A DNA stretch of 32,000 nt from Candidatus Heimdallarchaeota archaeon (GTDB lineage: Archaea > Asgardarchaeota > Heimdallarchaeia > Heimdallarchaeales > Heimdallarchaeaceae): contig DAOVER010000011.1 of NCBI GenBank assembly GCA_030668875.1, positions 30,001-62,000 of the forward strand, given 5' to 3'. The notes beneath the pieces are model-generated. The model was not told the origin of the DNA and searched no databases. It saw only the letters and a program-made list of their open reading frames with translations. Shown piece by piece: positions 2,603 to 30,615 of the stretch (the stretch's first letter is position 1; every line of letters begins with the position of its first letter). The translations under genes and the position numbers were made by a program.

Positions 2603-3217
2603 ATGAATGTTTATCAAGTTGTTAGAAAAAGATTGAAACAAGTTAAAGAACCTTACAAATTTCTTAACGGTGACGTTTATCTTGTCGTAACACCATTACA
2701 TATTTGGATATGGTTAGGATCAAAATCATTCTGTGATGATAAAGCAGTTGGAGCATGGACAGCGAAGGTAATTGAAGAAGAAAACAAAGATATTGAAATA
2801 GATACAGTGATGGAAGGCGATGAACCTCAAGAATTCAAAGATCTTATCACAATCGAAGTTGTAGAAGGAGACACTCCTGGTTTTCTAAAACACTTTGAAA
2901 AGAAAGTAGATATAGATTACAAATTGCTAAAAATCCAACAAGATTCTGATGGTTTGATCAAAACTTCAGAAGTCTCCATAAAGAAGAAATCCTTCAAATC
3001 AGGAGATAGTTTTGTTTTAGACGCCTGGGATGAGCTTTATGTTTGGATAGGCAAGAAATCACAAGTTAAAGAAAAGTATGAAGCAGGTAGAATTTCAAGA
3101 GCACTTGATGTTGAAAGGAAACGTACTCCTGTTATCTACACGATGGATGAAGGTCAAGAACCAAAAGGTTTCTGGGATATTGTCGAAAGGATCCAAAAAG
3201 AAGATCCAAAACAGTAA
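2603..3217 (+). CDS. Two-domain gelsolin-family protein (Asgard 2DGel-like)
   Basis: Two gelsolin repeats: GDVYLV..IWIWLGSKS..DDK...EGDEPQEF and SGDSFVLD..LYVWIGKKS..EK...EGQEPKGFW. The linker GDTPGFLKHF resembles the gelsolin G1-G2 SGFKHV linker. Confidence 0.9.
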   Translation: MNVYQVVRKRLKQVKEPYKFLNGDVYLVVTPLHIWIWLGSKSFCDDKAVGAWTAKVIEEENKDIEIDTVMEGDEPQEFKDLITIEVVEGDTPGFLKHFEKKVDIDYKLLKIQQDSDGLIKTSEVSIKKKSFKSGDSFVLDAWDELYVWIGKKSQVKEKYEAGRISRALDVERKRTPVIYTMDEGQEPKGFWDIVERIQKEDPKQ

Positions 3218-3242
3218 TTTCATCCTTTCTCTTTTTATTTTT
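3218..3242 (+). terminator. Pyrimidine/T-tract, putative archaeal intrinsic terminator
   Basis: tttcatcctttctctttttatttt directly follows the gelsolin stop codon. Confidence 0.5.
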
Positions 3243-3294
3243 ATGTATTTCGAACGCGAAAGATTAAAATACTTTGAATTGTTTTTTCTGGAGT

Positions 3295-3930
3295 ATGTCT
3301 TTTGAAGATAAAACTCCTGAATCATCAAAAGTAGAAACTTTTGAATCTCTAACAAGAGACCAACAACTCCTTCTATATACCATAGACTACTTAACAAAGT
3401 GGATGGTAAGTGATGAACACTTCGTGAGAAATGAAGGAGACAAAGTTTGGATTAAAGAGCTACCATTGTGGGCTATTATGTACTATCAAATCACTCACGG
3501 ATCATATGAGACTTATGATTACGCCCCTATACCAATTCAATTCTTTGGGAGAAGCAGTTTTACTGTAAATCTTTCATATGAAGGTGTTGATGATGTTGAA
3601 GATTTACGTGAATTAGATGTCCTAGAAAAGATTCGTCTCAGTACATCTCAACACGGTTTTGTTACTGCTTATAGGATTACAGAAATAGGGGACAAATATC
3701 TATTAAAAATTCCTAAGGATGTCATAGATGAAGTTGAAAAACTCTTTTTCTGTGAAAGTTGTCAAAAACGAATGCATTTCTACATGAATATGGGTGATAA
3801 TCCATCAGTTTTAATGGATTGCCCTGATTGTGATGAATCTGATGTTCATTTAGATTTTCTTGAGAGTGAAGATGTAAGTTATGTGTCAAAACCTTACTTT
3901 TTGAAAATAAGTGATATGCTGAAAAGGTGA
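3295..3930 (+). CDS. Winged-helix protein with C-terminal Zn ribbon, function unknown
   Basis: GGAG precedes ATG 3295. The wing-type ending AYRITEIGDKYL follows a YDYAP...SYEGVDDVEDLRE segment; CESC and CPDC pairs lie at the C-terminus. Confidence 0.7.
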   Translation: MSFEDKTPESSKVETFESLTRDQQLLLYTIDYLTKWMVSDEHFVRNEGDKVWIKELPLWAIMYYQITHGSYETYDYAPIPIQFFGRSSFTVNLSYEGVDDVEDLRELDVLEKIRLSTSQHGFVTAYRITEIGDKYLLKIPKDVIDEVEKLFFCESCQKRMHFYMNMGDNPSVLMDCPDCDESDVHLDFLESEDVSYVSKPYFLKISDMLKR

Positions 3931-3934
3931 TTAT

Positions 3935-5713
3935 ATGAGTGATGATAATGATTTAGCAGGAAACATAAAAGATGAATTAACAGAAGTTATCCATATTAAA
4001 GATCCCAAAATCTTTGTTATAGAATGGCTTCCTTTTGACTCTAATCAACTAAGAGAGCTTAACAAAAAAATGGACATTGAAAAAGGAGCACATAAAACTC
4101 TCCTTACAGGTTTAATTGATAAGCAACCAAATGTACCAATTTTTCAATCAAAAGGTGCTCATACAAAAGTATTCGTTGAGGATTATGAACTTGATAGTTT
4201 TGTTAATCTTCAAGCAATTATCGATTTACCTGAAGAAGAAGGTATAGCGCAAGTTGAAGAAATGGCTATTTTTGTCTCAAGAGATGGTTTCATCATTTAT
4301 TCATTAGAGTTGGCTGAAATTGAAAATCTGAATACCTACATGTCAATAGATAAAATAACTCGAGTTGTTGCAGATTTATGTCAAGATAGTTCTGTAGTGA
4401 TTGATAGTCTTTTGACTGAATTCCAAAGGAATTTTATCGAAATTATTTTTGGAGATCCTATCCATCGTCCAAAAACTATCTGTTATGTTGGTGATGATAT
4501 TAAAATCCGACATGAAGACATAAAAGATTACTATGATGGGGAGGAATTTGAGATTGAACTAAGCCAACTATTGGGTGAAGGACATGAACCTTTCCAAGTG
4601 GGTAATAATCTCTTCTTTAAAGGTTCAAGAGGAACATGTGCTATTGTAGATAAGTTTGATAAGGAAACAGAATACCAAATAGTTTTCTGGGGTATTCAGC
4701 ATGCAATGAACAATTTTGTAGATAATTTCATGTCTAGAATTTGGGAATTATATGATCAAACCAAGCAAGTGAAAAAAATCGTTGATGAAGCTGTTGCAGG
4801 CAATACTGATGCTTTAAATACCGTTACAGAAGAAATTACGGTAATTACTAGTACAATTAGTCTAGTTGGACAGATTAAAGAATTTCTTAAAGATTCTAGT
4901 AAAGATTTGTTAGAAATCTATGGAAAAAATGAAAAATGTAATCTTGATGGTTTCTATGAGGTTGAAAATTCCTTAAAATCTTCACAAAGAAGAATTCTCG
5001 AATCTGAAAAAATCATTTCTGGCTTATTAACAGAGCTTGATGGGTTACGAAATTACGTAGCAACTCTTTCAGAATTACAAATGAGAAAGATGTCTAAAGT
5101 AATGACAAAAAACACAAAAAGTATGAATGAAGTACTTCAAGCAAATACTAGAACAAGTGAAGCAATCGATATGATTGAATTGATTTTGGCAGGTAGTATC
5201 ATCTTAGAGATTTTTGCTTTTGCGGTGGGTGAAATTACGACTGAGCAGACATTCTTTGGTTCAATATTAGGGGGAGAAGGTTTTGGGAAGGATCAGTGGA
5301 TCACTCTAGCACTTTTAGTGATTAGTGTTTTCGCTTGGATAACTATAGTTATTCTATTAAGAAGAAGCAAGAAGAAAATGGAGATAGAAGCTTTGCAAGA
5401 TTTCTTTGTAACACTGTCTGTGAATAGAAAAATAGATACGGCTAAAATGGAAGAATATATCTCAGTAAGAACTGTTCAAATAAAAAATGTGGAAAATGAT
5501 AAGGACAATACAATCATCTCATATGTGTGGGATGGTAAAGATGATCCAAATCTGCTAGGAAAAGAAATAGAGAAAGTAAGTCTGAGTTATAACGCGACTA
5601 ACTGTTTATTACTCTCTATAGAAATTGAAACATCTGTGCTAGATATTCCACAGGATGAGCTTCTGGGTTATTTAATGGAAGATCTTGAAGCAAAGGAGAT
5701 ATTTATTAAATAA
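3935..5713 (+). CDS. CorA-like architecture membrane protein lacking the GMN motif
   Basis: AGGTGA SD overlaps the upstream stop. Large soluble N-domain, long stalk helix (~aa 343-410), two hydrophobic helices (~411-432, ~455-475), basic RRSKKK, then a ~110-aa soluble C-domain. Confidence 0.55.
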   Translation: MSDDNDLAGNIKDELTEVIHIKDPKIFVIEWLPFDSNQLRELNKKMDIEKGAHKTLLTGLIDKQPNVPIFQSKGAHTKVFVEDYELDSFVNLQAIIDLPEEEGIAQVEEMAIFVSRDGFIIYSLELAEIENLNTYMSIDKITRVVADLCQDSSVVIDSLLTEFQRNFIEIIFGDPIHRPKTICYVGDDIKIRHEDIKDYYDGEEFEIELSQLLGEGHEPFQVGNNLFFKGSRGTCAIVDKFDKETEYQIVFWGIQHAMNNFVDNFMSRIWELYDQTKQVKKIVDEAVAGNTDALNTVTEEITVITSTISLVGQIKEFLKDSSKDLLEIYGKNEKCNLDGFYEVENSLKSSQRRILESEKIISGLLTELDGLRNYVATLSELQMRKMSKVMTKNTKSMNEVLQANTRTSEAIDMIELILAGSIILEIFAFAVGEITTEQTFFGSILGGEGFGKDQWITLALLVISVFAWITIVILLRRSKKKMEIEALQDFFVTLSVNRKIDTAKMEEYISVRTVQIKNVENDKDNTIISYVWDGKDDPNLLGKEIEKVSLSYNATNCLLLSIEIETSVLDIPQDELLGYLMEDLEAKEIFIK

Positions 5714-5720
5714 CTTGTAA

Positions 5721-5745
5721 CCTCTTTTCTTCTCTTTTTTCATTT
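5721..5745 (+). terminator. T-tract putative terminator
   Basis: cctcttttcttctcttttttcattt after the stop at 5713. Confidence 0.5.
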
Positions 5746-5785
5746 AGATAGTTTTAATTACTACTTCTTAAATTATGATGATGAT

Positions 5786-6532
5786 ATGCCTAAAAATAAA
5801 AAAGCTTTATCGATTCAAACCACTGAATTGATTAAGGATTTTGAGTTACAGGGAGAGGAAATTGTTCATGTACTGACAGGTGTAAATATGAAGGTAAAAC
5901 CTGGAGAGTTTTTGGCATGCATGGGGCCTTCGGGCAGTGGAAAGTCCACTCTTCTAAACATATTAGCCACTTTAGAACCAATTACTGATGGAAAAGTGCT
6001 AATTAGTGGAGTTAATCTTCATGACACTTCCTACAAAGATCAATTAGAAATTAGACGAAATACAACAGCATTAGTTTTCCAAAACTTTGCATTAATTCCA
6101 TATCTTACTGCTAAAGAAAATGTCAAACTTCCTATGAAATTAAGAGGGGTTCCAGAGTCGGAGGCAGAAGAAAAAGCGATTAGTTTTCTAGAACAAGTTG
6201 GTCTTTACGCTCGTTTAGACCACTTACCTGAAGAACTAAGTGGTGGTGAGCAACAAAGGGTTGCAATTGCAAGAGCGCTTGCACATGAACCTGATATAAT
6301 TTACGCTGATGAACCTACTGGGAATCTTGACACAAGTATTGGAAAAGAAATTATTCAATTGTTTAAGACATTAGCAAAAGAGAAGAAGATTACTATTATT
6401 ATGGTTACACATGATCCAGATTGTGCAATTGAAACAGACCGTATATACATCCTTCAAGAAGGGAAAGTTCTCGAAGAAAGAGTCACGTCTATAAAGAAAC
6501 GCAGTAGTAAAATGGGGGATAAAAAGAAATGA
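5786..6532 (+). CDS. ABC transporter ATP-binding protein, LolD/MacB family
   Basis: Walker A GPSGSGKST, signature LSGGEQQRVAIARAL, ADEPTGNLD, VTHD. Confidence 0.93.
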   Translation: MPKNKKALSIQTTELIKDFELQGEEIVHVLTGVNMKVKPGEFLACMGPSGSGKSTLLNILATLEPITDGKVLISGVNLHDTSYKDQLEIRRNTTALVFQNFALIPYLTAKENVKLPMKLRGVPESEAEEKAISFLEQVGLYARLDHLPEELSGGEQQRVAIARALAHEPDIIYADEPTGNLDTSIGKEIIQLFKTLAKEKKITIIMVTHDPDCAIETDRIYILQEGKVLEERVTSIKKRSSKMGDKKK

Positions 6533-9303
6533 AGATTACAAATATTTTTTCAACATTAGGTTTATCCTTTAGAAGTATTTTTTCTAATAAAAGAAGAAGC
6601 ATTTCGATAGGTGCAGGAATGGTTCTAGGAGCAGCAATCTTCTCAAGTATCTTCTTCTATGGGTCCATGATAAACTCAATTACAGTTCAAGATATAGTTA
6701 ATAATACCGAAGCAGAGATAGCTTTTTCTCCAATCAGTGCTGTTTCAGAATATACTCCAGAACAATTTGCATATAAGATTACAGAAGAAGTAGAAATAGA
6801 GGATAGTATTGTAATGTACGGTGGGATGCAAGAACTGGATGACCATTTCGAGGTATTCTATGATTCTCAGATTACACCAGAGGTTAATTTCACCGAATAT
6901 AGTGGTGTTCAATATGCTAATCCTTTCTATATGCCATTTATCATAGACGATGATTTCATTAACAGCAGTATAGTTAATTCTGTAAATATGGTTGCTGGAG
7001 ATAATGATTTGAGTGGAAATAATTGCTTATTATCTATCGATCAGTACAAAACCTTAGGAATACAACTTGATGACACATTACCATTCAATTTTACACTCTA
7101 TAAACGGGATTATAGCGGAGGTTTTGATAATACAGAAATATTGGAAACTTATTCACTTAATCTAACTATCAAGGGTTTCTTTAGAAATAGCCTTCTTTTA
7201 GAAGATCATTATCTACTAATGGGGAGTCACAATCTCCCCAGTGGTATTATTACCAATATGACTTCATATCAAATGTTTAGAATTGCTTCCAAGCTTAACT
7301 TGGAGGAATTCCCTTTAAGTGATTTAATGGATCTTAATAATGCTATTGAACAAGTCATCAGAAGGATAGAACAAAATTATGATTTAGAAGGGAATAATCT
7401 TATTTCAGGGCAGTTATTTGCTTTTATAGGTATGATAACTATAATGCAATTGCTTGATACAATATTATACATACCTGCAATAGTACTATCTATCATTCTA
7501 ATTAATCTTGGAGCAGAACTTGCTCTGCAAGAAAGAAAATTTGAGGTTTCCGTACTTAAAGCTCAAGGAGCTAGCCCGAAACAGATACGGCGTATGATAT
7601 TTACAGAAGTATTTTTGATTGCAATTATTGGTGAAATTATTGGATTATTCTTGGGGATGTTAGGCGCAGCGATGGTGCTTTCAACATATCGTTTCATGGT
7701 GATAGATTTCCAAACTTTTGCATTAGCATTAACATCACTGAATATTACCACGTGGAGTATAATAGTAACGGTGATAATAACGTTTGGAATACTTTTTATT
7801 ACTACCAGAAAGAAAACAAACGCTTTCATAAAACAAGAAGTAGCTGTTGCTAAGACTATTGAGAAACAGAAAAAAGGTTGGTTTAAAACCATCTATGGTG
7901 ACGTAATATTCTTTGTCCTAGGACTAATCGGTGTCATTTTAACAGTTGTTGAAGACACAAACCCCGCAGTATCTTATAGTTTTGTTGTAGAATTATTACA
8001 ATTCTTTACACCTATTTTATTATGGTATGGTGGAGCAGCTGTAGTTAGTCGATTATCAACAAAGGTACCTGAAAAACTTGACAAAGTATTAGTTAAAGTA
8101 TTCAAAGACATAGGAAGTTTACTCAAAGGGAGCCTTTCAAGAAGACATCAGAACTTCCCAAGGATGACAGTCCTAATATGCTTATCAGTCTCTTTGAGCG
8201 TTTTTGCAGCAATACAAGGTGAAACTGGTACTGCAGAAATACCAAGACATGCAGATTATTACATTGGAGGCGATATGAGAATAGATGTGCTAGGTTATTA
8301 TCAAGATCTATCTATAACAAACTTCACTGGCTTCGAAGACAAAATAGAATCAGTTATACCTATATACTACACACCACTCCAATCAGGAGCAGATATGGTT
8401 CATTGTTATGGTGCTAATCTCACGCAGTATGGAGAAGAAGCTTTGTGGCATCGCGATTCGATTATTGATTATCCTAATTGGGAAAAAGGATTAGATACCA
8501 TACAAGCTAATCCATTGAGAAATGTAGGAATTGGTCTTGAATCAGCTCGATATCTAGAAATTGATGAAGATCCGGTGTTTAAACTAGACATTTTCAATAG
8601 CTCAGAAATAGAAGTTGAAGCAACAATTGTGATTGATCATGCCCCTGGAGGTGTTAAAGACGAATTTGCAGGTTTTGCAGGATATGCCATTTTAGTTGAT
8701 AGAGAATTCATCTTGAATTATGCACCGTTTACACATACTATAGTACGAGCTATAATAAATTTGAAACCAGGTGTTGATTCAATTGAAGAAAACCTTTCAT
8801 TCCAATTCAATACGAAATTTGATTGGATTGTTGATGCTCAATCTTATGAAGAAGAAATAGAGTTTATTGAAGGTAGAGAGGGATTGAGATTTGGTTTTCC
8901 AGGTTTACTGACAATCAACTTCATAATCGCTATAGTTGCAATTGTTATGGGTATAACTATATTCATGTTCATGATCATAAATCAGAGAAAGAAAGAATTT
9001 GCAATACTGATTGCTGAAGGAGCGTCAAAGAAACAGTTAGTTAAACTGGTTTTAACTGAAGTACTATCTATGGCTATTTTCGCAACGGGATTTGGAACAC
9101 TAATTGGATTCTTATTTGGTTATCAGATAAATTCCTTCTTTGACACGTTTAGTGTGACGACCTTTGATAGATACCTCATCATTCCGCCAATATTGCTCAC
9201 AACAACGATAGTAGGTGCATTTCTTGTCATCTTATTAGCTACTCTAGTGCCAGCTCTGATAGCTGCAAAAACAAATGTAGTGGAGGAAATGAGAACAGTT
9301 TAG
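6529..9303 (+). CDS. FtsX/MacB-like ABC permease, duplicated (two extracellular domains)
   Basis: N-terminal TM after KRRSISIG; two FtsX-type motifs (QERKFEVSVLKAQGASPKQIRRMIFTE and NQRKKEFAILIAEGASKKQLVKLVLTE); ends PALIAAKTNVVEEMR. ATGA overlap with the upstream ATPase. Confidence 0.9.
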   Translation: MKITNIFSTLGLSFRSIFSNKRRSISIGAGMVLGAAIFSSIFFYGSMINSITVQDIVNNTEAEIAFSPISAVSEYTPEQFAYKITEEVEIEDSIVMYGGMQELDDHFEVFYDSQITPEVNFTEYSGVQYANPFYMPFIIDDDFINSSIVNSVNMVAGDNDLSGNNCLLSIDQYKTLGIQLDDTLPFNFTLYKRDYSGGFDNTEILETYSLNLTIKGFFRNSLLLEDHYLLMGSHNLPSGIITNMTSYQMFRIASKLNLEEFPLSDLMDLNNAIEQVIRRIEQNYDLEGNNLISGQLFAFIGMITIMQLLDTILYIPAIVLSIILINLGAELALQERKFEVSVLKAQGASPKQIRRMIFTEVFLIAIIGEIIGLFLGMLGAAMVLSTYRFMVIDFQTFALALTSLNITTWSIIVTVIITFGILFITTRKKTNAFIKQEVAVAKTIEKQKKGWFKTIYGDVIFFVLGLIGVILTVVEDTNPAVSYSFVVELLQFFTPILLWYGGAAVVSRLSTKVPEKLDKVLVKVFKDIGSLLKGSLSRRHQNFPRMTVLICLSVSLSVFAAIQGETGTAEIPRHADYYIGGDMRIDVLGYYQDLSITNFTGFEDKIESVIPIYYTPLQSGADMVHCYGANLTQYGEEALWHRDSIIDYPNWEKGLDTIQANPLRNVGIGLESARYLEIDEDPVFKLDIFNSSEIEVEATIVIDHAPGGVKDEFAGFAGYAILVDREFILNYAPFTHTIVRAIINLKPGVDSIEENLSFQFNTKFDWIVDAQSYEEEIEFIEGREGLRFGFPGLLTINFIIAIVAIVMGITIFMFMIINQRKKEFAILIAEGASKKQLVKLVLTEVLSMAIFATGFGTLIGFLFGYQINSFFDTFSVTTFDRYLIIPPILLTTTIVGAFLVILLATLVPALIAAKTNVVEEMRTV

Positions 9304-10323
9304 GTGATAAATATGTATGGAGATCAAAGACAAAAAATAAGGATTCAACCTCTGCCTGAGCATATGGCATTACAGGCATTAGATATTTATCATGTATATG
9401 GAATGGAACATCAGAACAAGGTTGTAGCTCTGAAAGGAGTTAGTTTTGATATTAAAAAAGGAGAGATATTAGGTATTATTGGTCCATCAGGAAGCGGTAA
9501 ATCAACTCTTTTACTATCTATGGGTGGAATGTTGAAACCAAGCGCTGGACAAATAATATTCAATGATGGTACGGACATCACTAAGTTACCTGAGGAGGAA
9601 CAATTCTCATTTAGACGACACAATATTGGCTATGTCTTTCAAGAGCAGAATCTAATTCCTTTCTTAACCGCTGAACAAAACATCGAGATGCCTATGAAAC
9701 TTATTGACATTCCAAGAGCCAAACGTAAAGTTAGAGTAAAAGAACTCATGGAAAGATTAGGTATCTGGCATAGACGAACACACACACCAACACGTGTCTC
9801 AGGTGGAGAAAGACAAAGGGTTGCAATAGCTAGAGCACTAGCAAATAACCCTCATCTTATACTGGCAGATGAACCAACTGGGTCTGTTGATTCAGATACT
9901 TCAACACAAATACTGAATCTTTTTCAGGAATTGAAGGATGAAACTGAAACCAGCTTTCTTATCTGCAGTCATGATCCAATTGTTGGTGAGTTTTCTGATA
10001 GAACTCTAGAAATCCGCGATGGTATAATTATTGGAGAACACGGTTTAGGTGTTGATTTATCGAATTTAGATAGTTCTAGATTATTAGTAATTGACAACCA
10101 AAACAGAATAACCTTACCCGAAAAAGCTTTAGTTAGATTAAAAGGTTCTTTGCTTTATACTTGGGAATTGAAAGATGAAGGCATCATGTTAAAACCTTTA
10201 GCTAAAAAGGATGAAAAACTTGAACGAAAAATCAAGTTTTGTACATCTTGCGGGGCTGAAATACAACCTGGAACATACAGTTGTACTAGATGTGGAGCAA
10301 AGTTAACTAGGATAGTGAGATAA
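9304..10323 (+). CDS. LolD-family ABC ATPase with C-terminal AbrB/SpoVT-like domain and Zn ribbon
   Basis: GPSGSGKST, VSGGERQRVAIARAL, ADEPTG, SHD. Then LLVIDNQNRITLP (AbrB-like) and FCTSCGAEIQPGTYSCTRCGAKL. The true start may be ATG 9313 (AGGTGA SD). Confidence 0.88.
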   Translation: MINMYGDQRQKIRIQPLPEHMALQALDIYHVYGMEHQNKVVALKGVSFDIKKGEILGIIGPSGSGKSTLLLSMGGMLKPSAGQIIFNDGTDITKLPEEEQFSFRRHNIGYVFQEQNLIPFLTAEQNIEMPMKLIDIPRAKRKVRVKELMERLGIWHRRTHTPTRVSGGERQRVAIARALANNPHLILADEPTGSVDSDTSTQILNLFQELKDETETSFLICSHDPIVGEFSDRTLEIRDGIIIGEHGLGVDLSNLDSSRLLVIDNQNRITLPEKALVRLKGSLLYTWELKDEGIMLKPLAKKDEKLERKIKFCTSCGAEIQPGTYSCTRCGAKLTRIVR

Positions 10324-19498: not shown

Positions 19499-20542
19499 AT
19501 GAAGACTTATAAAATGCCAAAAAATGTGTTTCCTGACTTCATTGAGTTAATCAAAACAAAAGGGAAACTGTTTGGACCAGTTAAGCAAAAGAGTAAATAT
19601 TCTTTTGAAGAAATCAGTGATGTGCAAGATCTTGATTTTGACTACCAACGAACAGTTTTAGGAGTGAAAAAATTCTTAACTCCTCCAAGATACAAGACCT
19701 TAAGCTTCGACAAAGAAGGTACAAAGGACATTATTGACGAGCCTGAAACAAATATCGTTATAGGGGTACATCCTTGTGATATTCATGCCATTAAAATCTT
19801 GGATAGACTTTTCCTGGGTAATATAATAGATCCATACTATGCAAGTAAAAGAGAGAATTTGACAATTATCGGTCATTCTTGTCTTCCAGATGACAAGTGT
19901 TTGTGCCAATCAACTGGAACAGATATGGTTGAGGATGGATTTGATCTCTTCTTAACAGAGTTAGAAGAATATTATTTAGTTTGGGTTGGTTCCGATAAAG
20001 GACTTGCTCTTACAATAGCAGCTGGTGATTTACTTTCTGAAGATATTTCAGACGAAAGTATAAGGGAATATGTTAGATGGCAACAAAAGCGTTCATCAAT
20101 GTTCAAAGCTGTTATGCCTTCATTCAAGTATATGGCAGACATTATTACTTTAAACTATGACAGTGAAATATGGGAGCAATTTGGAGAAAAATGTTTGTCT
20201 TGCGGGACTTGCAGTTTAGTATGTCCTACATGCAATTGTTTCAATGTCGATGACAAAATTCTAATGAATGCAGAGGAAGGGTTCCGTGAAAGAATGTTAG
20301 ATAGCTGTACTTTACCATATTATTCAATGGTAGCAGGAGATCATGACTTTAGACCAGATAGAACAACAAGGTTGAAATTATATTATACTCATAAACTCAA
20401 AGAATACATTGGACGATGGGGTCAACCTGGTTGTGTCGGGTGCGGACGATGTGTAACATATTGTCCCGTTGATATTAACGTAATAACTGTCTCTGAAGCA
20501 CTGTTTGGAGAAGTTTGTGATACCAAAGAGGTGTGTGAATAA
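19499..20542 (+). CDS. hydB: Group 3b [NiFe] sulfhydrogenase beta subunit (Fe-S, AsrA-like)
   Basis: GVHPCD, CLSCGTCSLVCPTCNCF, CVGCGRCVTYCP; first gene of the operon. Confidence 0.9.
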   Translation: MKTYKMPKNVFPDFIELIKTKGKLFGPVKQKSKYSFEEISDVQDLDFDYQRTVLGVKKFLTPPRYKTLSFDKEGTKDIIDEPETNIVIGVHPCDIHAIKILDRLFLGNIIDPYYASKRENLTIIGHSCLPDDKCLCQSTGTDMVEDGFDLFLTELEEYYLVWVGSDKGLALTIAAGDLLSEDISDESIREYVRWQQKRSSMFKAVMPSFKYMADIITLNYDSEIWEQFGEKCLSCGTCSLVCPTCNCFNVDDKILMNAEEGFRERMLDSCTLPYYSMVAGDHDFRPDRTTRLKLYYTHKLKEYIGRWGQPGCVGCGRCVTYCPVDINVITVSEALFGEVCDTKEVCE

Positions 20543-21402
20543 TGATTGATGGAAAGAAATCAAAAATCGAAAATACATATAAATCACATCCTGTAGAAAT
20601 ATTAGGAATTAAGGATTTAACCAGTGATACTCGATACTTCAAAGTCAGATTTATGGATGAAGAAATGAAAAAACAATTTGTATACAAACCAGGTCAGTTT
20701 GTTATATTTTCAATCCCAGGACTTGGAGAAGCAACATTTTCTATATCTTCTCCACCTACAAGAAGGGATTTCATAGAGTTTGGTATTAGACGAGTAGGAT
20801 CATTTACTGAAGCGTATTTCAAACTTAAAGAAGGAGATACTTTTGAGATGAGAGGACCTTATGGTAATGGTTTTGATATGGAGAGCTTACAAGGAAGAGA
20901 CCTTATTATTATAGCTGGTGGGTTAGGAGCAGTTCCATTAAGATCTGCATTGTTATATGCTGAAGATAGACGAGAAGATTTCAATCAAGTATTCTTCTTA
21001 AATGGTGCTCGTTCTCCAGAGGATATGCTCTTCAGAGAGGATTTCAAGGCGATGGCAGCAAGAGGTATTCTTGACACAAGACTTTCAGTTGATGAAGATC
21101 CTACAGGAGAATGGCCTTATGAAGTAGGTTTTGTAACAGCTTTGATTCCTAAATTAGCAGAAAAAATCAATCCTGAAAACACTACAGCTTTAATATGCGG
21201 ACCTCCTATAATGTATAAGTTTGTTATTCAAGAATTATTAAAAATAAATGTTCCTAAAGACCAAATCCTGATGACTTTAGAAAGAAGAATGAAATGTGGT
21301 CAAGGACATTGTGGTCATTGTGCAATAGGTGGGAGATATACCTGTTTAGATGGGCCAATCTTTACGTATTATGATGTACAACATATAAAGGAGTTAATCT
21401 AA
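20542..21402 (+). CDS. hydG: Group 3b sulfhydrogenase gamma subunit (FAD/NAD(P), 2Fe-2S)
   Basis: PGQFV, FSISS, RGPYGNGF, IAGGLG, ICGPPIM, LERRMKCGQGHCGHC, TCLDGP. Confidence 0.92.
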   Translation: MIDGKKSKIENTYKSHPVEILGIKDLTSDTRYFKVRFMDEEMKKQFVYKPGQFVIFSIPGLGEATFSISSPPTRRDFIEFGIRRVGSFTEAYFKLKEGDTFEMRGPYGNGFDMESLQGRDLIIIAGGLGAVPLRSALLYAEDRREDFNQVFFLNGARSPEDMLFREDFKAMAARGILDTRLSVDEDPTGEWPYEVGFVTALIPKLAEKINPENTTALICGPPIMYKFVIQELLKINVPKDQILMTLERRMKCGQGHCGHCAIGGRYTCLDGPIFTYYDVQHIKELI

Positions 21403-21403
21403 A

Positions 21404-22195
21404 ATGTGGAAAAGAGAAAAGAAGCCTATTGTTGGTGTTTTTGGTTTTTCTGGGTGTGCTGGTGATCAATTAGCTATACTTCACATGGAAGACAGTACAA
21501 TTGATTTCTTTACAAGCGCAGATATCAAATTCTTCCATATGGCTCAATCTCATCAAGAAGTTCCAAAAATGGATATTGCCCTTGTTGAAGGAAGTATAAA
21601 CACTCAAAGGCAACTAAGAGAATTAAAAGAAATTCGCGAAATGGCAGATATTGTTGTAGCACTAGGCACATGTGCTTGTTATGGTGGAATACAATATCTC
21701 GGAGAAGATGAAGAAACATTCAAAGAAAGAATGAAGTATGTTTACGGTAAAAGCGGAGAAGTTCCAGAATTTTTAGATCTTGTAGGAAAACCCAAGCCGG
21801 CTCAACCAATCAGTGATTTCATTGATGTTGATATCATGATTCCAGGCTGTCCTATTTCTGCAGAAAACTTTGTGCCAATTTATACAAAATTGATCAGTGG
21901 GTTATTACCTCAGAAGTATCCTATGCCAGTTTGTGTTGAATGTAAATATGAAGGAAACGATTGTTTCTTACTCCATGGAAAGTACTGTTTAGGACCAGTA
22001 ACCTCAGCAGGTTGTAATGCTATCTGTCCCAGCATGGATATTTCCTGTGTTGGATGTTTTGGTACATATGAAGGTGCAAATTATCCTTCCATGATTAGCA
22101 AACTGAAGGAAATTGGTTTAACTGAAGAAGAAGCAATAAGAAAATTGAAGCTGTTTGGCGGTAATAAAGTCGAACAAGCGTTAAAAGGTGATTGA
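21404..22195 (+). CDS. hydD: Group 3b [NiFe] hydrogenase small (delta) subunit
   Basis: GCAGDQ, VEGS, ALGTCACYGG, IPGCP, VCVEC, CLGPVT.AGCNAICP, CVGCFG. Confidence 0.92.
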   Translation: MWKREKKPIVGVFGFSGCAGDQLAILHMEDSTIDFFTSADIKFFHMAQSHQEVPKMDIALVEGSINTQRQLRELKEIREMADIVVALGTCACYGGIQYLGEDEETFKERMKYVYGKSGEVPEFLDLVGKPKPAQPISDFIDVDIMIPGCPISAENFVPIYTKLISGLLPQKYPMPVCVECKYEGNDCFLLHGKYCLGPVTSAGCNAICPSMDISCVGCFGTYEGANYPSMISKLKEIGLTEEEAIRKLKLFGGNKVEQALKGD

Positions 22196-22197
22196 AA

Positions 22198-23484
22198 ATG
22201 GCTGAAAAAACAATAAGTGTCGATGTTATTTCCAGGGTAGAAGGAGACGGTGGAATTCAAGTCTTTACCAAAGATGGCAAAGTGGATAAAGTCCTAGTTG
22301 ATATTTTTGAAGGACCACGTATGATTGAAGCTCTTGTAAGAGGAAAAACATACCAAGAAAATCTTTCCTTAGTCTCACGTATCTGTGCAATATGTACAGT
22401 TTCTCATCGAAATGTTTCAATTAAAGCAATTGAAAAAGCTCTAAAGGTAAAGGTTCCTGAGAAGGTTAAACTACTTAGAGAACTTATGCATCTTGCTGAA
22501 TATGTAGAATCACACATTTTACATGTTTATTATCTTGCTATACCTGATTTCTTCAAGCAACCATCTGCAATAGCATTAATACCAACTCATGGTGAAACTG
22601 TTATCCAAGCAGTTACAATGAAAAAGTATGGTACAGAATTAATGCAACTTCTTATGGGTAGAAAGATACATGGAGAGAATCCTCAAATTGGTGGATTTGG
22701 ACGAATACCAACAAACGAAGAATTAGACAAATTCCTTGAAAACGCTGCTGAGTATCAATCCTGGGTATCAGCTATTATTGATCTAATGGCAACATTACCC
22801 ATACCAGAATATGGTGTTAGAGATACTACATTCATGTGTTGTAATCCTGCAGATGGTAAATTTGGTTTTGAGGGTGACACAATTCTTATCTCTACAGGAG
22901 AAGAATATCCAGTAGAAGATTATAAGAATATGACAAATGAAAGAGTTGTTTCTCATAGCTATGCTAAACGTTCAAAATATCAAGACAAATCATTTTCAGT
23001 TAGTGCTCTTGCAAGACTTGCGCTAATTGGTGATAGATTAACAGGTGAAGCAAAAGAGAAGTATGATAAATATTTCAACGAAAGCTGGAAGTCAAATCCG
23101 ATATATAATAACTTGTGTCAGGCAATTGAAGCGCTCTGGGCTTTTGAACAGATACCAATCCTCATCGAAAAAATCAAAGTTTTGCCCGATCAAGAAATGG
23201 CTGTTCCTGAGGTATTAGATGGTACTGCAACAGCTGCAGTTGAAGCTCCACGAGGTACTTTATATCATACATATGAAATCAAGGATGGAATAATTGTCAA
23301 TGCAGATATCATTACACCTACAGCTCAATTCCTTGATGATATTGAAAAATACATTTGGGTAGCAGCAGAGAAATTATTAGCAGAAGACAATCCTGATACT
23401 GAACTTCATTTGGAAATGATTGCTAGGTCATATGACCCTTGCATATCATGTAGTTGTCATATGGTAAAACTGGTGAAAGAGTAA
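22198..23484 (+). CDS. hydA: Group 3b [NiFe] hydrogenase large (alpha) subunit
   Basis: RVEG, L1 RICAIC, EAPRG, L2 DPCISCSCH followed by a 7-aa cleavable tail (MVKLVKE). AGGTGA SD precedes ATG 22198. Confidence 0.95.
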   Translation: MAEKTISVDVISRVEGDGGIQVFTKDGKVDKVLVDIFEGPRMIEALVRGKTYQENLSLVSRICAICTVSHRNVSIKAIEKALKVKVPEKVKLLRELMHLAEYVESHILHVYYLAIPDFFKQPSAIALIPTHGETVIQAVTMKKYGTELMQLLMGRKIHGENPQIGGFGRIPTNEELDKFLENAAEYQSWVSAIIDLMATLPIPEYGVRDTTFMCCNPADGKFGFEGDTILISTGEEYPVEDYKNMTNERVVSHSYAKRSKYQDKSFSVSALARLALIGDRLTGEAKEKYDKYFNESWKSNPIYNNLCQAIEALWAFEQIPILIEKIKVLPDQEMAVPEVLDGTATAAVEAPRGTLYHTYEIKDGIIVNADIITPTAQFLDDIEKYIWVAAEKLLAEDNPDTELHLEMIARSYDPCISCSCHMVKLVKE

Positions 23485-23949
23485 TTGTCTATCTCCCTTC
23501 CTTTTTTTAATTCATCTGAAATCGAAAAATACGCCTTCATTTGTTTAGGTAATATTGATAGAGCAGATGATGCATTTGGCATATTAGTAGGTGAAAAACT
23601 TAAAGGAAAATACCCAGAAAATGTTTTCTCTGAGCTAGATAACGATTTGTCTGTTTTTCTTTTTGATTTGATTGAAAATAAGCAAGTACAGCATGTTTTT
23701 CTCATTGATGCTGTAGATTTCAATGGTGAACATGGTGAAATCATCGTAAAAGAAGATTTTGACACAAAAATAACACAAATATCAACTCATACTATCCCCT
23801 ATAAACAAATCAAGAACATTATTGAAGTGAAAGGTAAGAAATTTCAACTTATCGGAGCCCAAGTAAAGGATTTAACTTTTTTGGGAGAAGTTTCAACAGA
23901 GATTCTGGACGCAGTTGAAAAAGTAGTCGAGTTTTTCATTAAAGATTAA
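23485..23949 (+). CDS. hycI: Hydrogenase maturation endopeptidase (HycI/HybD family)
   Basis: CLGNIDRADDAFG, LIDAVDF, STHTIP; directly after hydA. TTG start uncertain. Confidence 0.88.
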   Translation: MSISLPFFNSSEIEKYAFICLGNIDRADDAFGILVGEKLKGKYPENVFSELDNDLSVFLFDLIENKQVQHVFLIDAVDFNGEHGEIIVKEDFDTKITQISTHTIPYKQIKNIIEVKGKKFQLIGAQVKDLTFLGEVSTEILDAVEKVVEFFIKD

Positions 23950-29232: not shown

Positions 29233-30576
29233 TCAGAGATAATCTATCAAGTTTCTCATGTTATCCAAAGTTTCCAGGCCTTTTGTTGTCAGTTCATAGT
29301 GTTTTCTTGTAACTTCCATCTCACTAGGTACAATCATTCCTTTTTCTTCTAATTCTGTTAAATGCTGATAAATTGATTGAAGAGATTGATTTTTACCTAA
29401 AGAAATCCAAATTGAATAACCATAATCAGCTTTCTTTCCAGCAATGAGATTGAGGATTTCAAACTTTGTAGTAGAGCTTTCTGATAATCCCCAAACAACT
29501 TTCTTCTTTCCTCTTAATCTAGCTGCGTAAACGTTAAGTGTACTTAATCCAGAACCAGACAGGATAGCAACACTAGATTTTGAATCTATTATTCCTTCTT
29601 GAATGAGATTTTTAGCAGCAACTAATACTGATGCTGAGGCTGGTTCAATAAACAGTCCTTCATTTTTAGCTAAAATTAAAGCTTCATCTAACATAGACTC
29701 GGCGTCGATTTCTATTTCATTCCCATTTGTTTTTTGAATTATCTTTTTCACTTCTTCCAGAAGAAATACCTTTGTAATCTCTAATGATTCTGCTAAATGA
29801 GCTACTTTTGTTTTTTCTAATGAAACAGCATAAATCTTTGGATATTCTTCAATCCATCCTGAGGCAATAGCATCTTCTAAACCTCGAAAAATGGAATAGA
29901 TTAAAGATCCTGACCCTCTTGGCACTATTATGCTGTCTATAGTGTCTTTCTGTAAAACTATTTCTAGACCAATTGTTTTCTGACCTTCAATAGTTAGAAG
30001 ATTATTATCTGGAGATGCGTGATATACTTTGTTATCTTGTGCTAGTGTGGAAGAATATTCAATTGCTTCGTCAACTGATTCACCTTTTTCAATAATCTGA
30101 CTGCCATATATTTTGATTTGTTCAATTTTGGAAAGTTCAAGATTTTGTGGGATAACACTTATAGAATCGATTTTAGCTTTTGCAGCATAAGCTGCTAAAC
30201 TAATACTAAAAGCCCCAGTACTTGCACCAACAATAGTTTGTGATTTGTTTTGATATGCATCTGAAACTAATAAAGAACTTGCTCTATCTCGAAAAGAACC
30301 AGTAGGATTCCTGAAATCGAGTTTCAAGCTTAAATCTTGATAATCAGCTATGTTCTTGACAGGCAATAGTGGAGTATTGCCCTCAAAAAGTGAAATTGGT
30401 TTGGAAAAATCAGGAAGAAAAGAATGTAAAGACCACATTGAGGATAGTTTGACATCACTAAATGATGGTCCACTAATTGGAGGAATGGCAACTAACCCTT
30501 TGCAGTTTGAACACCTTAGTTGTGGACCTTTGAAAGTTTTTCTACAATCATTACAAGTCGGTTGATTCTTCCACAT
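29233..30576 (-). CDS. Threonine-synthase-like (fold-type II PLP) protein with N-terminal Zn ribbon, PLP Lys replaced by Arg, fused to a C-terminal PadR-like winged helix
   Basis: CNDC/CSNC; SLFEGNTPL, NPTGSFRDR (normally SFKDR), ASTGA (normally ASTGN), EGQKT, VPRGSG, EPASA; tail KFEILNLI...YGYSIW...LQSIYQHLTELEEKGMI...RKHYELTTKG. Confidence 0.85.
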   Translation of the reverse strand: MWKNQPTCNDCRKTFKGPQLRCSNCKGLVAIPPISGPSFSDVKLSSMWSLHSFLPDFSKPISLFEGNTPLLPVKNIADYQDLSLKLDFRNPTGSFRDRASSLLVSDAYQNKSQTIVGASTGAFSISLAAYAAKAKIDSISVIPQNLELSKIEQIKIYGSQIIEKGESVDEAIEYSSTLAQDNKVYHASPDNNLLTIEGQKTIGLEIVLQKDTIDSIIVPRGSGSLIYSIFRGLEDAIASGWIEEYPKIYAVSLEKTKVAHLAESLEITKVFLLEEVKKIIQKTNGNEIEIDAESMLDEALILAKNEGLFIEPASASVLVAAKNLIQEGIIDSKSSVAILSGSGLSTLNVYAARLRGKKKVVWGLSESSTTKFEILNLIAGKKADYGYSIWISLGKNQSLQSIYQHLTELEEKGMIVPSEMEVTRKHYELTTKGLETLDNMRNLIDYL

Positions 30577-30615
30577 TATTACCAACGATTAGCACGATAA
30601 AATATAATGTTATTG

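Follow-up and report, generated by a model that had tools for sequence, protein, structure and literature searches.

A gene pair of Heimdallarchaeaceae archaea probably encodes a two-subunit, CorA-like membrane complex without the GMN filter

The GMN filter is the defining trait of CorA-type channels, which are viewed as homopentamers encoded by a single gene. Two adjacent genes at positions 3,295 to 5,713 of a stretch of DNA from a Candidatus Heimdallarchaeota archaeon (assembly GCA_030668875.1, contig DAOVER010000011.1, forward-strand positions 30,001 to 62,000; this stretch of 32,000 nucleotides is called the window, and its numbering is used throughout) raise the question what a CorA-like membrane protein does without this filter and behind a small second gene. 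An initial annotation, made from the sequence alone, had read the pair as a winged-helix/zinc-ribbon protein (gene 1) and a CorA-like membrane protein (gene 2), and had proposed an undescribed regulated-pore module, either a toxin-antitoxin or antiviral system or an ion channel for ions other than Mg2+ with a dedicated regulator. Taken as a whole, the results are best and probably explained by a two-subunit membrane complex of the CorA superfamily that lacks GMN and has a dedicated cytosolic subunit. Such a complex would most likely be a regulated cation pore with an accessory rather than an essential role.

Both genes could be read directly from the sequence. Gene 1 (211 amino acids, aa) starts with the ATG at 3295 and ends with the TGA at 3928-3930, and gene 2 (592 aa) starts with the ATG at 3935 and ends with the TAA at 5711-5713. 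The four nucleotides TTAT separate them, and the sequence AGGTGA at 3925-3930 runs over the stop codon of gene 1. Since gene 1 homologues share the N-terminus MSFED, the ATG at 3295 and not the upstream TTG at 3274 is the start. A T-rich run around 3227-3246, 3′ of a gelsolin gene, precedes the pair and a second one follows it, so that the layout described initially (genes 4 bp apart, a Shine-Dalgarno (SD) sequence in the first stop codon and T-tracts on both sides) could be confirmed. The features of the pair, including its transmembrane helices (TM1 and TM2), are the following.

3256..3271, + strand: putative archaeal promoter, a purine-rich CGAAAG resembling a B recognition element (BRE), followed by the TATA-like ATTAAAATA (direct reading)
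3295..3930, + strand: gene 1, PF27231 (MJ1567) family, 211 aa, with a probable winged-helix-like core, a putative C4 zinc ribbon and a conserved C-terminal tail
3514..3591, + strand: gene 1 conserved motif 1, YDYAP..IQFFGRS..N.SYEG, residues 74-99 (invariant alignment columns; predicted contact with gene 2)
3751..3831, + strand: gene 1 putative zinc ribbon, CESC 153-156 and CPDC 176-179 (sequence; weak Zn_ribbon Pfam matches)
3865..3927, + strand: gene 1 C-terminal tail, EDVSYVSKPYF..., residues 191-211 (conservation extends from archaea to eukaryotes; docks on the β-sheet and stalk helices of gene 2 in the predicted complex)
3925..3934, + strand: coupling region, SD-like AGGTGA on the gene 1 TGA stop and the 4-nt spacer to the gene 2 ATG (direct reading)
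3935..5713, + strand: gene 2, PF27230 (MJ1566_N) family, 592 aa, CorA-like architecture without GMN
3935..4660, + strand: gene 2 N-terminal α/β cytosolic domain, residues 1-242, holding most of the predicted gene 1 interface (model and alignment)
4661..5155, + strand: stalk region of gene 2 with its long helices, residues 243-407 (alignment with the stalk of CorA via the bridging protein P0138)
5156..5227, + strand: gene 2 TM1, residues 408-431, with D412, E415, the conserved ILAGS and E425 (alignment)
5297..5377, + strand: gene 2 TM2, residues 455-475, with invariant W468, and the basic belt RRSKKK, 476-481 (alignment)
5393..5710, + strand: gene 2 cytosolic C-terminal α/β domain, residues 487-592 (model and alignment)
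5723..5745, + strand: T-rich tract past the gene 2 stop codon, likely an archaeal terminator (direct reading)

The centre of the TATA-like element lies about 28 nt 5′ of the gene 1 ATG, which suggests that the pair has a promoter of its own and would imply a leaderless or near-leaderless mRNA. No bacterial-type hairpin terminator was found at the pair, in agreement with archaeal oligo-T termination, in a scan that also covered sigma-70 promoters and that is uninformative for an archaeon. The two genes would form one bicistronic, translationally coupled cassette for a two-subunit membrane complex. The motifs and the two CxxC pairs that had been noticed in gene 1 were all located in its translation (YDYAP at residues 74-78, SYEGVDDVEDLRE at 94-106 and AYRITEIG at 125-132), and the same was true for the anatomy of gene 2, with two TMs, no GMN, the three acidic residues in TM1, the extra C-terminal domain and a modelled stalk helix leading into TM1.

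Every listed homologue of gene 1 carries the precomputed label PF27231, including one that is 91% identical, and 33 of the 34 listed homologues of gene 2 carry PF27230, including one that is 93% identical (the exception is a 355-aa fragment). The neighbouring genes at related loci bear these labels as well. Through these labels, and thus indirectly, gene 1 and gene 2 belong to the two Pfam families, whose names point to the adjacent genes MJ1566 and MJ1567 of Methanocaldococcus jannaschii. When the two proteins themselves were scanned with a Pfam library that did not contain the PF27230 and PF27231 models, no family and only weak zinc-ribbon matches were obtained. The word 'undescribed' of the initial annotation applies to the function, as none is attached to either family, but not to the families, which were already in Pfam. 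Our literature searches found no paper mentioning MJ1566/MJ1567 or these families, none on the eukaryotic locus tags of the family and none on CorA and its GMN motif in Asgard archaea.

Is gene 2 a relative of CorA? In a Foldseek search of the PDB with the AlphaFold model of gene 2 (pLDDT 75), the best 50 matches were all CorA, ZntB or Mrs2 (best E 5e-4), and in an Atlas fold search a CorA cluster matched with a TM-score of 0.54. The link by sequence was provided by a bridging relative, P0138 (463 aa; one member is named as an Acidobacteriota metagenome-assembled genome (MAG) protein, and its contigs reach up to 8 Mb). This protein aligns with the family profile over residues 13-386 with 100% probability and matches Pfam CorA over residues 286-454 (E 1e-20, 74.6 bits with a cut-off of 27), where it has a canonical YGMNF...MPEL pore. 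A second GMN-bearing cluster, P0174, combines the same N-domain with the same canonical pore and likewise matches Pfam CorA at E 1e-20. These relatives join the N-domain of the family to a CorA pore, and the MJ1566_N body and stalk are therefore of the CorA type. On these alignments, the connection of gene 2 to CorA via P0138 and P0174 is the decisive support, more so than the fold, and together with the Foldseek result it bears out the earlier call of a CorA-like protein without GMN. The 5′ neighbour of P0138 is a PF27231 gene with a 4-nt overlap, indicating that the MJ1567 partner accompanies the N-domain whatever the pore. Matches to Rab-1B and to the nucleoprotein TPR in the PDB sequence search were dismissed as noise, as there is no P-loop and the matches reflect coiled-coil bias. 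Other unannotated families share the fold of the gene 2 body in the Atlas, namely proteins of 375-395 aa from bacteria of the candidate phyla radiation (CPR) and PF27233 (MJ0711_N), which hints that a wider set of GMN-less CorA-like proteins may exist.

We then looked at what is conserved in gene 2. Across the family, P33, G118, D139, D147, D151, R178, K180, Q211 and G233 are among the invariant residues of the N-domain, and a single modelled helix spanning residues 343-431 continues into TM1. GMN was found in none of the long forms aligned, and the position that it takes in CorA is occupied by G432-E433 after TM1. Within TM1, G420 of the ILAGS motif is almost invariant, and E/Q415, the AG[ST] patch, an acidic residue at 425 (E/D) and the G-E are kept across archaea, bacteria and eukaryotes. 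This conservation of polar, acidic and small residues across the domains of life argues for more than an anchor. Long forms from archaea, bacteria and eukaryotes have the C-terminal domain, whereas short forms (460-540 aa) lack it; an Atlas language-model feature search with this domain alone gave no usable match. Gene 2 would then be a divergent member of the CorA, or metal ion transporter (MIT), superfamily, consisting of an α/β domain, a stalk leading into TM1, TM2, a basic belt and an additional cytosolic C-terminal domain. The GMN filter may be replaced in it by a TM1 with a conserved polar ring (E/Q415), a patch of small residues (AGS 419-421), the acidic E425 and the G-E at the outer end.

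The same observations can be turned into a different proposal, in which there is no channel and the complex serves as a sensor or scaffold anchored in the membrane. The body resembling CorA would then be only an oligomeric platform, and the winged-helix/zinc-ribbon subunit and the C-terminal domain would do the work, for instance by sequestering or releasing a module for nucleic-acid or protein binding at the membrane. The loss of GMN and a TM hairpin that cannot be aligned to that of GMN-type relatives agree with this, as do the C-terminal domain conserved from archaea to eukaryotes, the winged-helix fold, which often serves protein or nucleic-acid binding, and ubiquitin-like inserts in some eukaryotic forms. 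A mere anchor, however, would need none of the residues E/Q415, G420, E/D425 and G-E that TM1 has kept; gene 1 is strongly acidic, unlike DNA-binding winged helix-turn-helix proteins; its zinc ribbon is not kept family-wide; and in one marine eukaryote transcript (P0263) a cyclic nucleotide (cNMP)-binding domain is inserted, as in gated channels. We regard a sensor or scaffold as unlikely, though not negligible, and favour the complex with a pore.

Next we addressed whether gene 1 is a true partner of gene 2. Close homologues of both genes come from Candidatus Heimdallarchaeaceae MAGs. Among 300 Asgard genomes, gene 2 is present in 40 and gene 1 in 38, and gene 1 lies directly upstream of gene 2 on the same strand in every locus where the contig permits this to be seen. 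The mismatches in pairing are truncated or partial copies, mostly at contig ends, and only one genome without gene 2 has a match to gene 1, a partial one of 118 aa. The split pair occurs in Heimdallarchaeum aukensis and endolithica and in Hermod-, Hel- and Borrarchaeota; one Thermoplasmata and one Methanobacteriota MAG have the reverse gene order, with the genes still adjacent. The pair was found again in 37 further Asgard genomes and is therefore no chance pair of open reading frames (ORFs). In this gene-neighbourhood survey, which had been suggested along with the initial annotation, the genes co-occur and adjoin both across Asgard and in other archaea.

Individual loci showed some peculiarities. 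In one Asgard genome (L026, G084:C74, 1-3500), two tandem gene-1-like ORFs lie 5′ of a short-form gene 2. In the complete genome of Ca. Heimdallarchaeum endolithica PR6 (G074; L040, 2977-4728), an in-frame TAG follows codon 104 of gene 2 and divides it into 104 and 479 aa, which could mean that the copy is a pseudogene, that the TAG is read through or that it is an error of sequencing. The protein in the database (P0029, 476 aa) begins past this stop. The NCBI labels of L044 and L001 (Bathyarchaeia), L049 (Deferrimicrobium) and P0034 (Zixibacteria) clash with their placement among Asgard archaea, in the same class or phylum as the archaeon of the window, and these are probably mislabelled bins.

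Outside these archaea the two genes are often one. A search with the gene 2 profile against 1.84 billion representatives (E<=1e-3) yielded 668 clusters at 50% identity, and most of the long relatives (790-1200 aa) carry a gene 1 domain about 25 residues ahead of the gene 2 domain. Bacterial fused forms were found in Wallbacteria, Myxococcota, Planctomycetota and Muiribacteriota, and neighbouring genes confirmed the bacterial origin of the Myxococcota fused gene and of one further contig. Eukaryotic fused forms occur in oomycetes (Phytophthora, Pythium, Aphanomyces), cryptophytes (Guillardia, Baffinella), the dinoflagellate Symbiodinium, Mallomonas, chrysophytes, Prasinoderma, Chlorophyta/green algae and Parvularia, in several cases on Mb-scale scaffolds. 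Genomic linkage in archaea and fusion elsewhere make it most likely that the two genes encode one machine and not a toxin-antitoxin pair.

Family members such as P0055, P0059, P0070 and P0242, among others, are named 'WD repeat-containing protein 35' in JGI/IMG and in some NCBI records. Some oomycete gene models (Globisporangium splendens, Phytophthora cinnamomi; P0183, P0265) merge the family gene with a neighbouring true WDR35/IFT121 gene, and the name has probably spread from such merged models by similarity.

To see where the two proteins might meet, residues 1-400 of gene 2 were modelled together with gene 1 and compared with controls. The predicted complex had an interface score (ipSAE) of 0.71, compared to 0.01 for the best control; the mark applied to this score lets through 58 of 80 solved complexes as against 2 of 110 mismatched pairs. 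Different runs had at least 62% of the contacts in common, with a partner pLDDT of at least 70. On the side of gene 1, the predicted interface consists of residues 75-99 and 191-211, which hold its most conserved motifs, YDYAP..QFFGRS and EDVSYVS.PYF, and both motifs are kept in eukaryotes too. PDB sequence searches with the single proteins and the family profile found no solved relative of either protein, and memorisation of a known structure by the predictor is therefore an unlikely explanation. As gene 1 and gene 2 are halves of a gene that is fused elsewhere, predicted binding was to be expected, and the result mainly places the interface. A complex model had been part of the initial proposal as a pentamer; in the form run here, binding was predicted. 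The motifs at 74-99 and 191-211 would pack on the N-domain sheet and the stalk of gene 2, and the winged-helix and zinc-ribbon parts would face outward, likely as a sensor or gating module. Strict co-occurrence, fusion and the predicted interface all agree with the earlier notion that gene 1 is dedicated to gene 2.

The nature of gene 1 itself was less easily read. Foldseek with its model returned only winged helices (PadR, RTP, Rio2, ORC), weakly (best E 4e-3), and zinc-ribbon Pfam families match several of its relatives, again weakly; both agree with the winged-helix and zinc-ribbon call made from the sequence. The zinc-ribbon cysteines are retained in Heimdall and Hermod copies, degenerate in several other lineages, and reduced to 0-1 CxxC pair in the fused forms examined. 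The product is acidic (pI 4.6), and several lineages as well as fused forms have lost the cysteines; gene 1 therefore appears to be a protein-binding or sensor subunit and not a DNA binder. A role as a free autoregulator or DNA-binding factor was considered and rejected, since the protein is acidic, since it is joined to the membrane protein in other organisms and since the predicted interface is formed by its conserved motifs. Gene 1 would be an obligate cytosolic subunit, neither a free transcription factor nor an antitoxin.

The antitoxin idea stems from a resemblance of gene 1 to Panacea domains. In a toxin-antitoxin or abortive-infection system, gene 2 would be a depolarising membrane pore and gene 1 a Panacea-like antitoxin holding it shut until infection or stress. 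Two genes with the small partner first and tightly coupled would suit such a system, and so would presence and absence of the module at a conserved site that varies otherwise too. The family of PanA antitoxins (Panacea) pairs with membrane-targeting toxins, one of which is a coiled coil with C-terminal TM helices (PMC8832971), and CorA-type effectors that are activated by SAM-AMP (S-adenosylmethionine-AMP) exist in type III CRISPR systems (PMC10600005). When 20 diverse gene 1 domains were compared with 5 genuine Asgard Panacea proteins, hhalign gave a probability of 46% (E 2e-4, 83 columns), and YDYAP and AY.IT..G, the very motifs named initially, fell on Y.[FY]GP and on the wing, respectively; with single sequences the probability was 3% and 55%. 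By language-model features, the nearest Atlas cluster (score 0.89) has SocA_Panacea on 16% of its members. Gene 1 may thus be a remote relative of Panacea or only resemble it; the Pfam SocA_Panacea hidden Markov model (HMM; PF13274, DUF4065) matched neither gene 1 (P0001) nor 19 diverse relatives at E<=1, and of the 4 Panacea genes that it found in the 300 Asgard genomes none is at the module locus, though 38 of these genomes carry gene 1.

Other results speak against a defence function more directly. No cas or defence genes were found in the window or in the related loci examined. PADLOC gave only a weak generic TM match for gene 2 (tm_4, E 0.006) and generic ABC-ATPase matches for the neighbours, neither of which was counted as defence. 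Each gene is present in a single copy in its own genome (92% complete), and within the genus the module has diverged about as much as the flanking genes. The GMN-bearing relatives, apparently ordinary Mg2+ channels, retain the same partner. Finally, the two modules form one polypeptide in several bacterial phyla and many eukaryotes, and Panacea is reported to be absent from eukaryotes (PMC8832971). We consider the toxin-antitoxin or antiviral option of the initial annotation quite improbable on these grounds, and retain a dedicated subunit of a CorA-like complex as the role of gene 1.

To see how the split and the fused forms are related, a careful maximum-likelihood (ML) tree was built from 59 sequences, with a weak root (59/91) placed on the short forms. 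The fused forms make up one clade (98/97). Its sister is a split archaeal form that lies beside SecY and ribosomal protein genes (100/99), and the next sister group includes an Asgard lineage (99/97). The Myxococcota fused forms nest within a eukaryote polytomy. With the fused clade among archaeal split forms, the fusion looks derived from an archaeal split pair, and the path to eukaryotes may have been direct or through bacteria. On the archaeal contig of P0326, the pair lies inside the conserved cluster of ribosomal-protein, SecY and adenylate-kinase genes, beside a gene of the EMC3/TMCO1 family. A more far-reaching claim can be made from all this, namely a novel class of gated cation pores in archaea, bacteria and protists, in which a winged-helix cousin of Panacea gates a GMN-less channel derived from CorA and whose eukaryotic single chain arose by fusion of an Asgard-type split pair; in this full form we regard it as doubtful at best.

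Several results weigh against a CorA-like cation pore. The TM-scores in the Foldseek search were low (0.2-0.4), and the VIA superposition of gene 2 on the cytosolic domain of E. coli CorA (5n77_A; rmsd 2.2 Å over 136 residues) has a Z of 12.3 that is attainable by chance among helical proteins. The Pfam CorA HMM (PF01544) matched neither gene 2 nor any copy of the module in the genomes of the family. The profile alignment to P0138 ends before the TM hairpin, so that homology of the pore to CorA is not carried by sequence and conduction is argued from architecture alone. There is no GMN or GxN in the TM region of gene 2, as the only G.N strings, at residues 223 and 330, lie off the membrane, and the structure of gene 1 was predicted poorly (pLDDT 59). 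Within the genus, moreover, no more than 7 of the 21 genomes carry the module. In G198 and G045, of the same genus, the gelsolin gene is followed by the ABC gene after about 170 bp, and no module lies between the two; this clean absence from the same site in relatives marks the module as dispensable and accessory. In 30 genomes of the family, the module and canonical CorA showed no complementary distribution: both are present in G127, G282 and G273, and many other genomes have neither. As the module and canonical CorA are not anticorrelated, the distribution of the module points to no particular ion.

These distributions also bear on a further alternative, namely that gene 2 is a CorA transporter of the ordinary kind for Mg2+/Co2+ whose sequence has drifted, and that gene 1 is an add-on which it can do without. 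The CorA fold and the GMN-bearing bridging relatives would fit this, as would the genome of the window, in which a Pfam CorA HMM scan found no match to a canonical CorA. That genome does carry MgtE, however; the GMN Mg2+ filter is missing from all long forms examined; the module does not complement canonical CorA; and, apart from the partial 118-aa copy, gene 1 was not found apart from gene 2 in Asgard genomes. A drifted CorA is in our view very improbable. Under the interpretation that we prefer, and by analogy with CorA, the two proteins would make up an oligomeric, gated pore for cations with a selectivity other than the classical one for Mg2+, and gene 1 would take part in its gating.

If this is right, a sizeable family keeps the body of CorA, drops its filter, adds a C-terminal domain and is always accompanied by a second protein, encoded next door in archaea and fused in bacteria and protists. 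Two catalogued Pfam families for which no function is listed would gain a concrete and testable role, and 'WD repeat-containing protein 35' is corrected as a spreading mis-annotation. That the eukaryotic form nests among archaeal split forms may interest research on the origin of eukaryotes, with the route blurred by the bacterial fused forms. Presence and absence of the module at one syntenic site in close relatives offer natural comparisons with and without it.

This site lies between the gelsolin gene and the ABC/FtsX genes, where the module sits wherever it is present in the genus, with conserved synteny. The surrounding genes in the window include the following.

2603-3217, + strand: gelsolin-repeat protein, 204 aa, with two repeats (Pfam Gelsolin, E 2e-23), adjoining the module on its 5′ side and syntenic across the genus
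5786-10323, + strand: MacB-like system with an ATP-binding cassette (ABC) ATPase, a 924-aa FtsX-type permease and a second ABC ATPase ending in a zinc ribbon (Zn_Ribbon_1)
19499-23949, + strand: cytosolic [NiFe]-hydrogenase-type cluster with 4Fe-4S, FAD/NAD-binding, small and large subunits and a HycI-like maturation protease
29233-30585, - strand: pyridoxal phosphate (PLP)-dependent (PALP) enzyme with a C-terminal PadR-like winged-helix segment (weak, about at the cut-off)

Gelsolin-repeat proteins are eukaryote-like cytoskeletal proteins typical of Asgard archaea. Further genes of the window encode an aminotransferase, a MazG-like protein, phosphatases, and transporters of the major facilitator superfamily (MFS) and the energy-coupling factor (ECF) type. 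The gelsolin-ABC site varies within the genus: it holds the module in the window (3218-5785), is empty in G198 and G045, holds the module together with an AttH-domain gene and another gene in L070 (5332-6276), and holds about 1.2 kb of other sequence in G183 (L080, 346-1590).

How does the module compare with known systems? Like the type III CRISPR CorA effectors (PMC10600005), it combines a CorA-fold membrane protein with a separate cytosolic partner or signal. In contrast to these, it has no CRISPR context and no cas10, NrN or SAM-AMP lyase genes nearby, and its partner would be a structural subunit and not a signalling enzyme. As in PanA/PanT (PMC8832971), a small helical protein, probably with a winged-helix-like fold, is encoded directly ahead of a protein with a coiled coil and TM helices, and there is a weak similarity of motifs, whereas the Panacea HMM misses gene 1, the partner is fused in eukaryotes, and the context is neither mobile nor toxin-antitoxin-like.

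With CorA, ZntB and Mrs2 (MIT, 2-TM-GxN, PF01544), gene 2 has in common a cytosolic α/β domain, a stalk of long helices that run on into TM1, a TM hairpin toward the C-terminal side and a basic belt past TM2. The C-terminus of CorA is basic and ends in KKKKWL, and the RRSKKK belt of gene 2 is similar to it. Gene 2 differs from CorA in having no GMN or GxN, no Pfam CorA match, a larger N-domain and an additional cytosolic C-terminal domain of 105 aa. Moreover, canonical CorA is without an obligate second subunit or N-terminal fusion, whereas the family of gene 2 has one. Further counterparts of the pair are the fused proteins of protists and bacteria. These are single polypeptides of about 790-1200 aa in which the zinc-ribbon cysteines are mostly gone, and they consist of the same two modules in the same order, match the pair over its full length including the C-terminal domain, and share with it the motifs YDYAP and EDVSYVS.PY.

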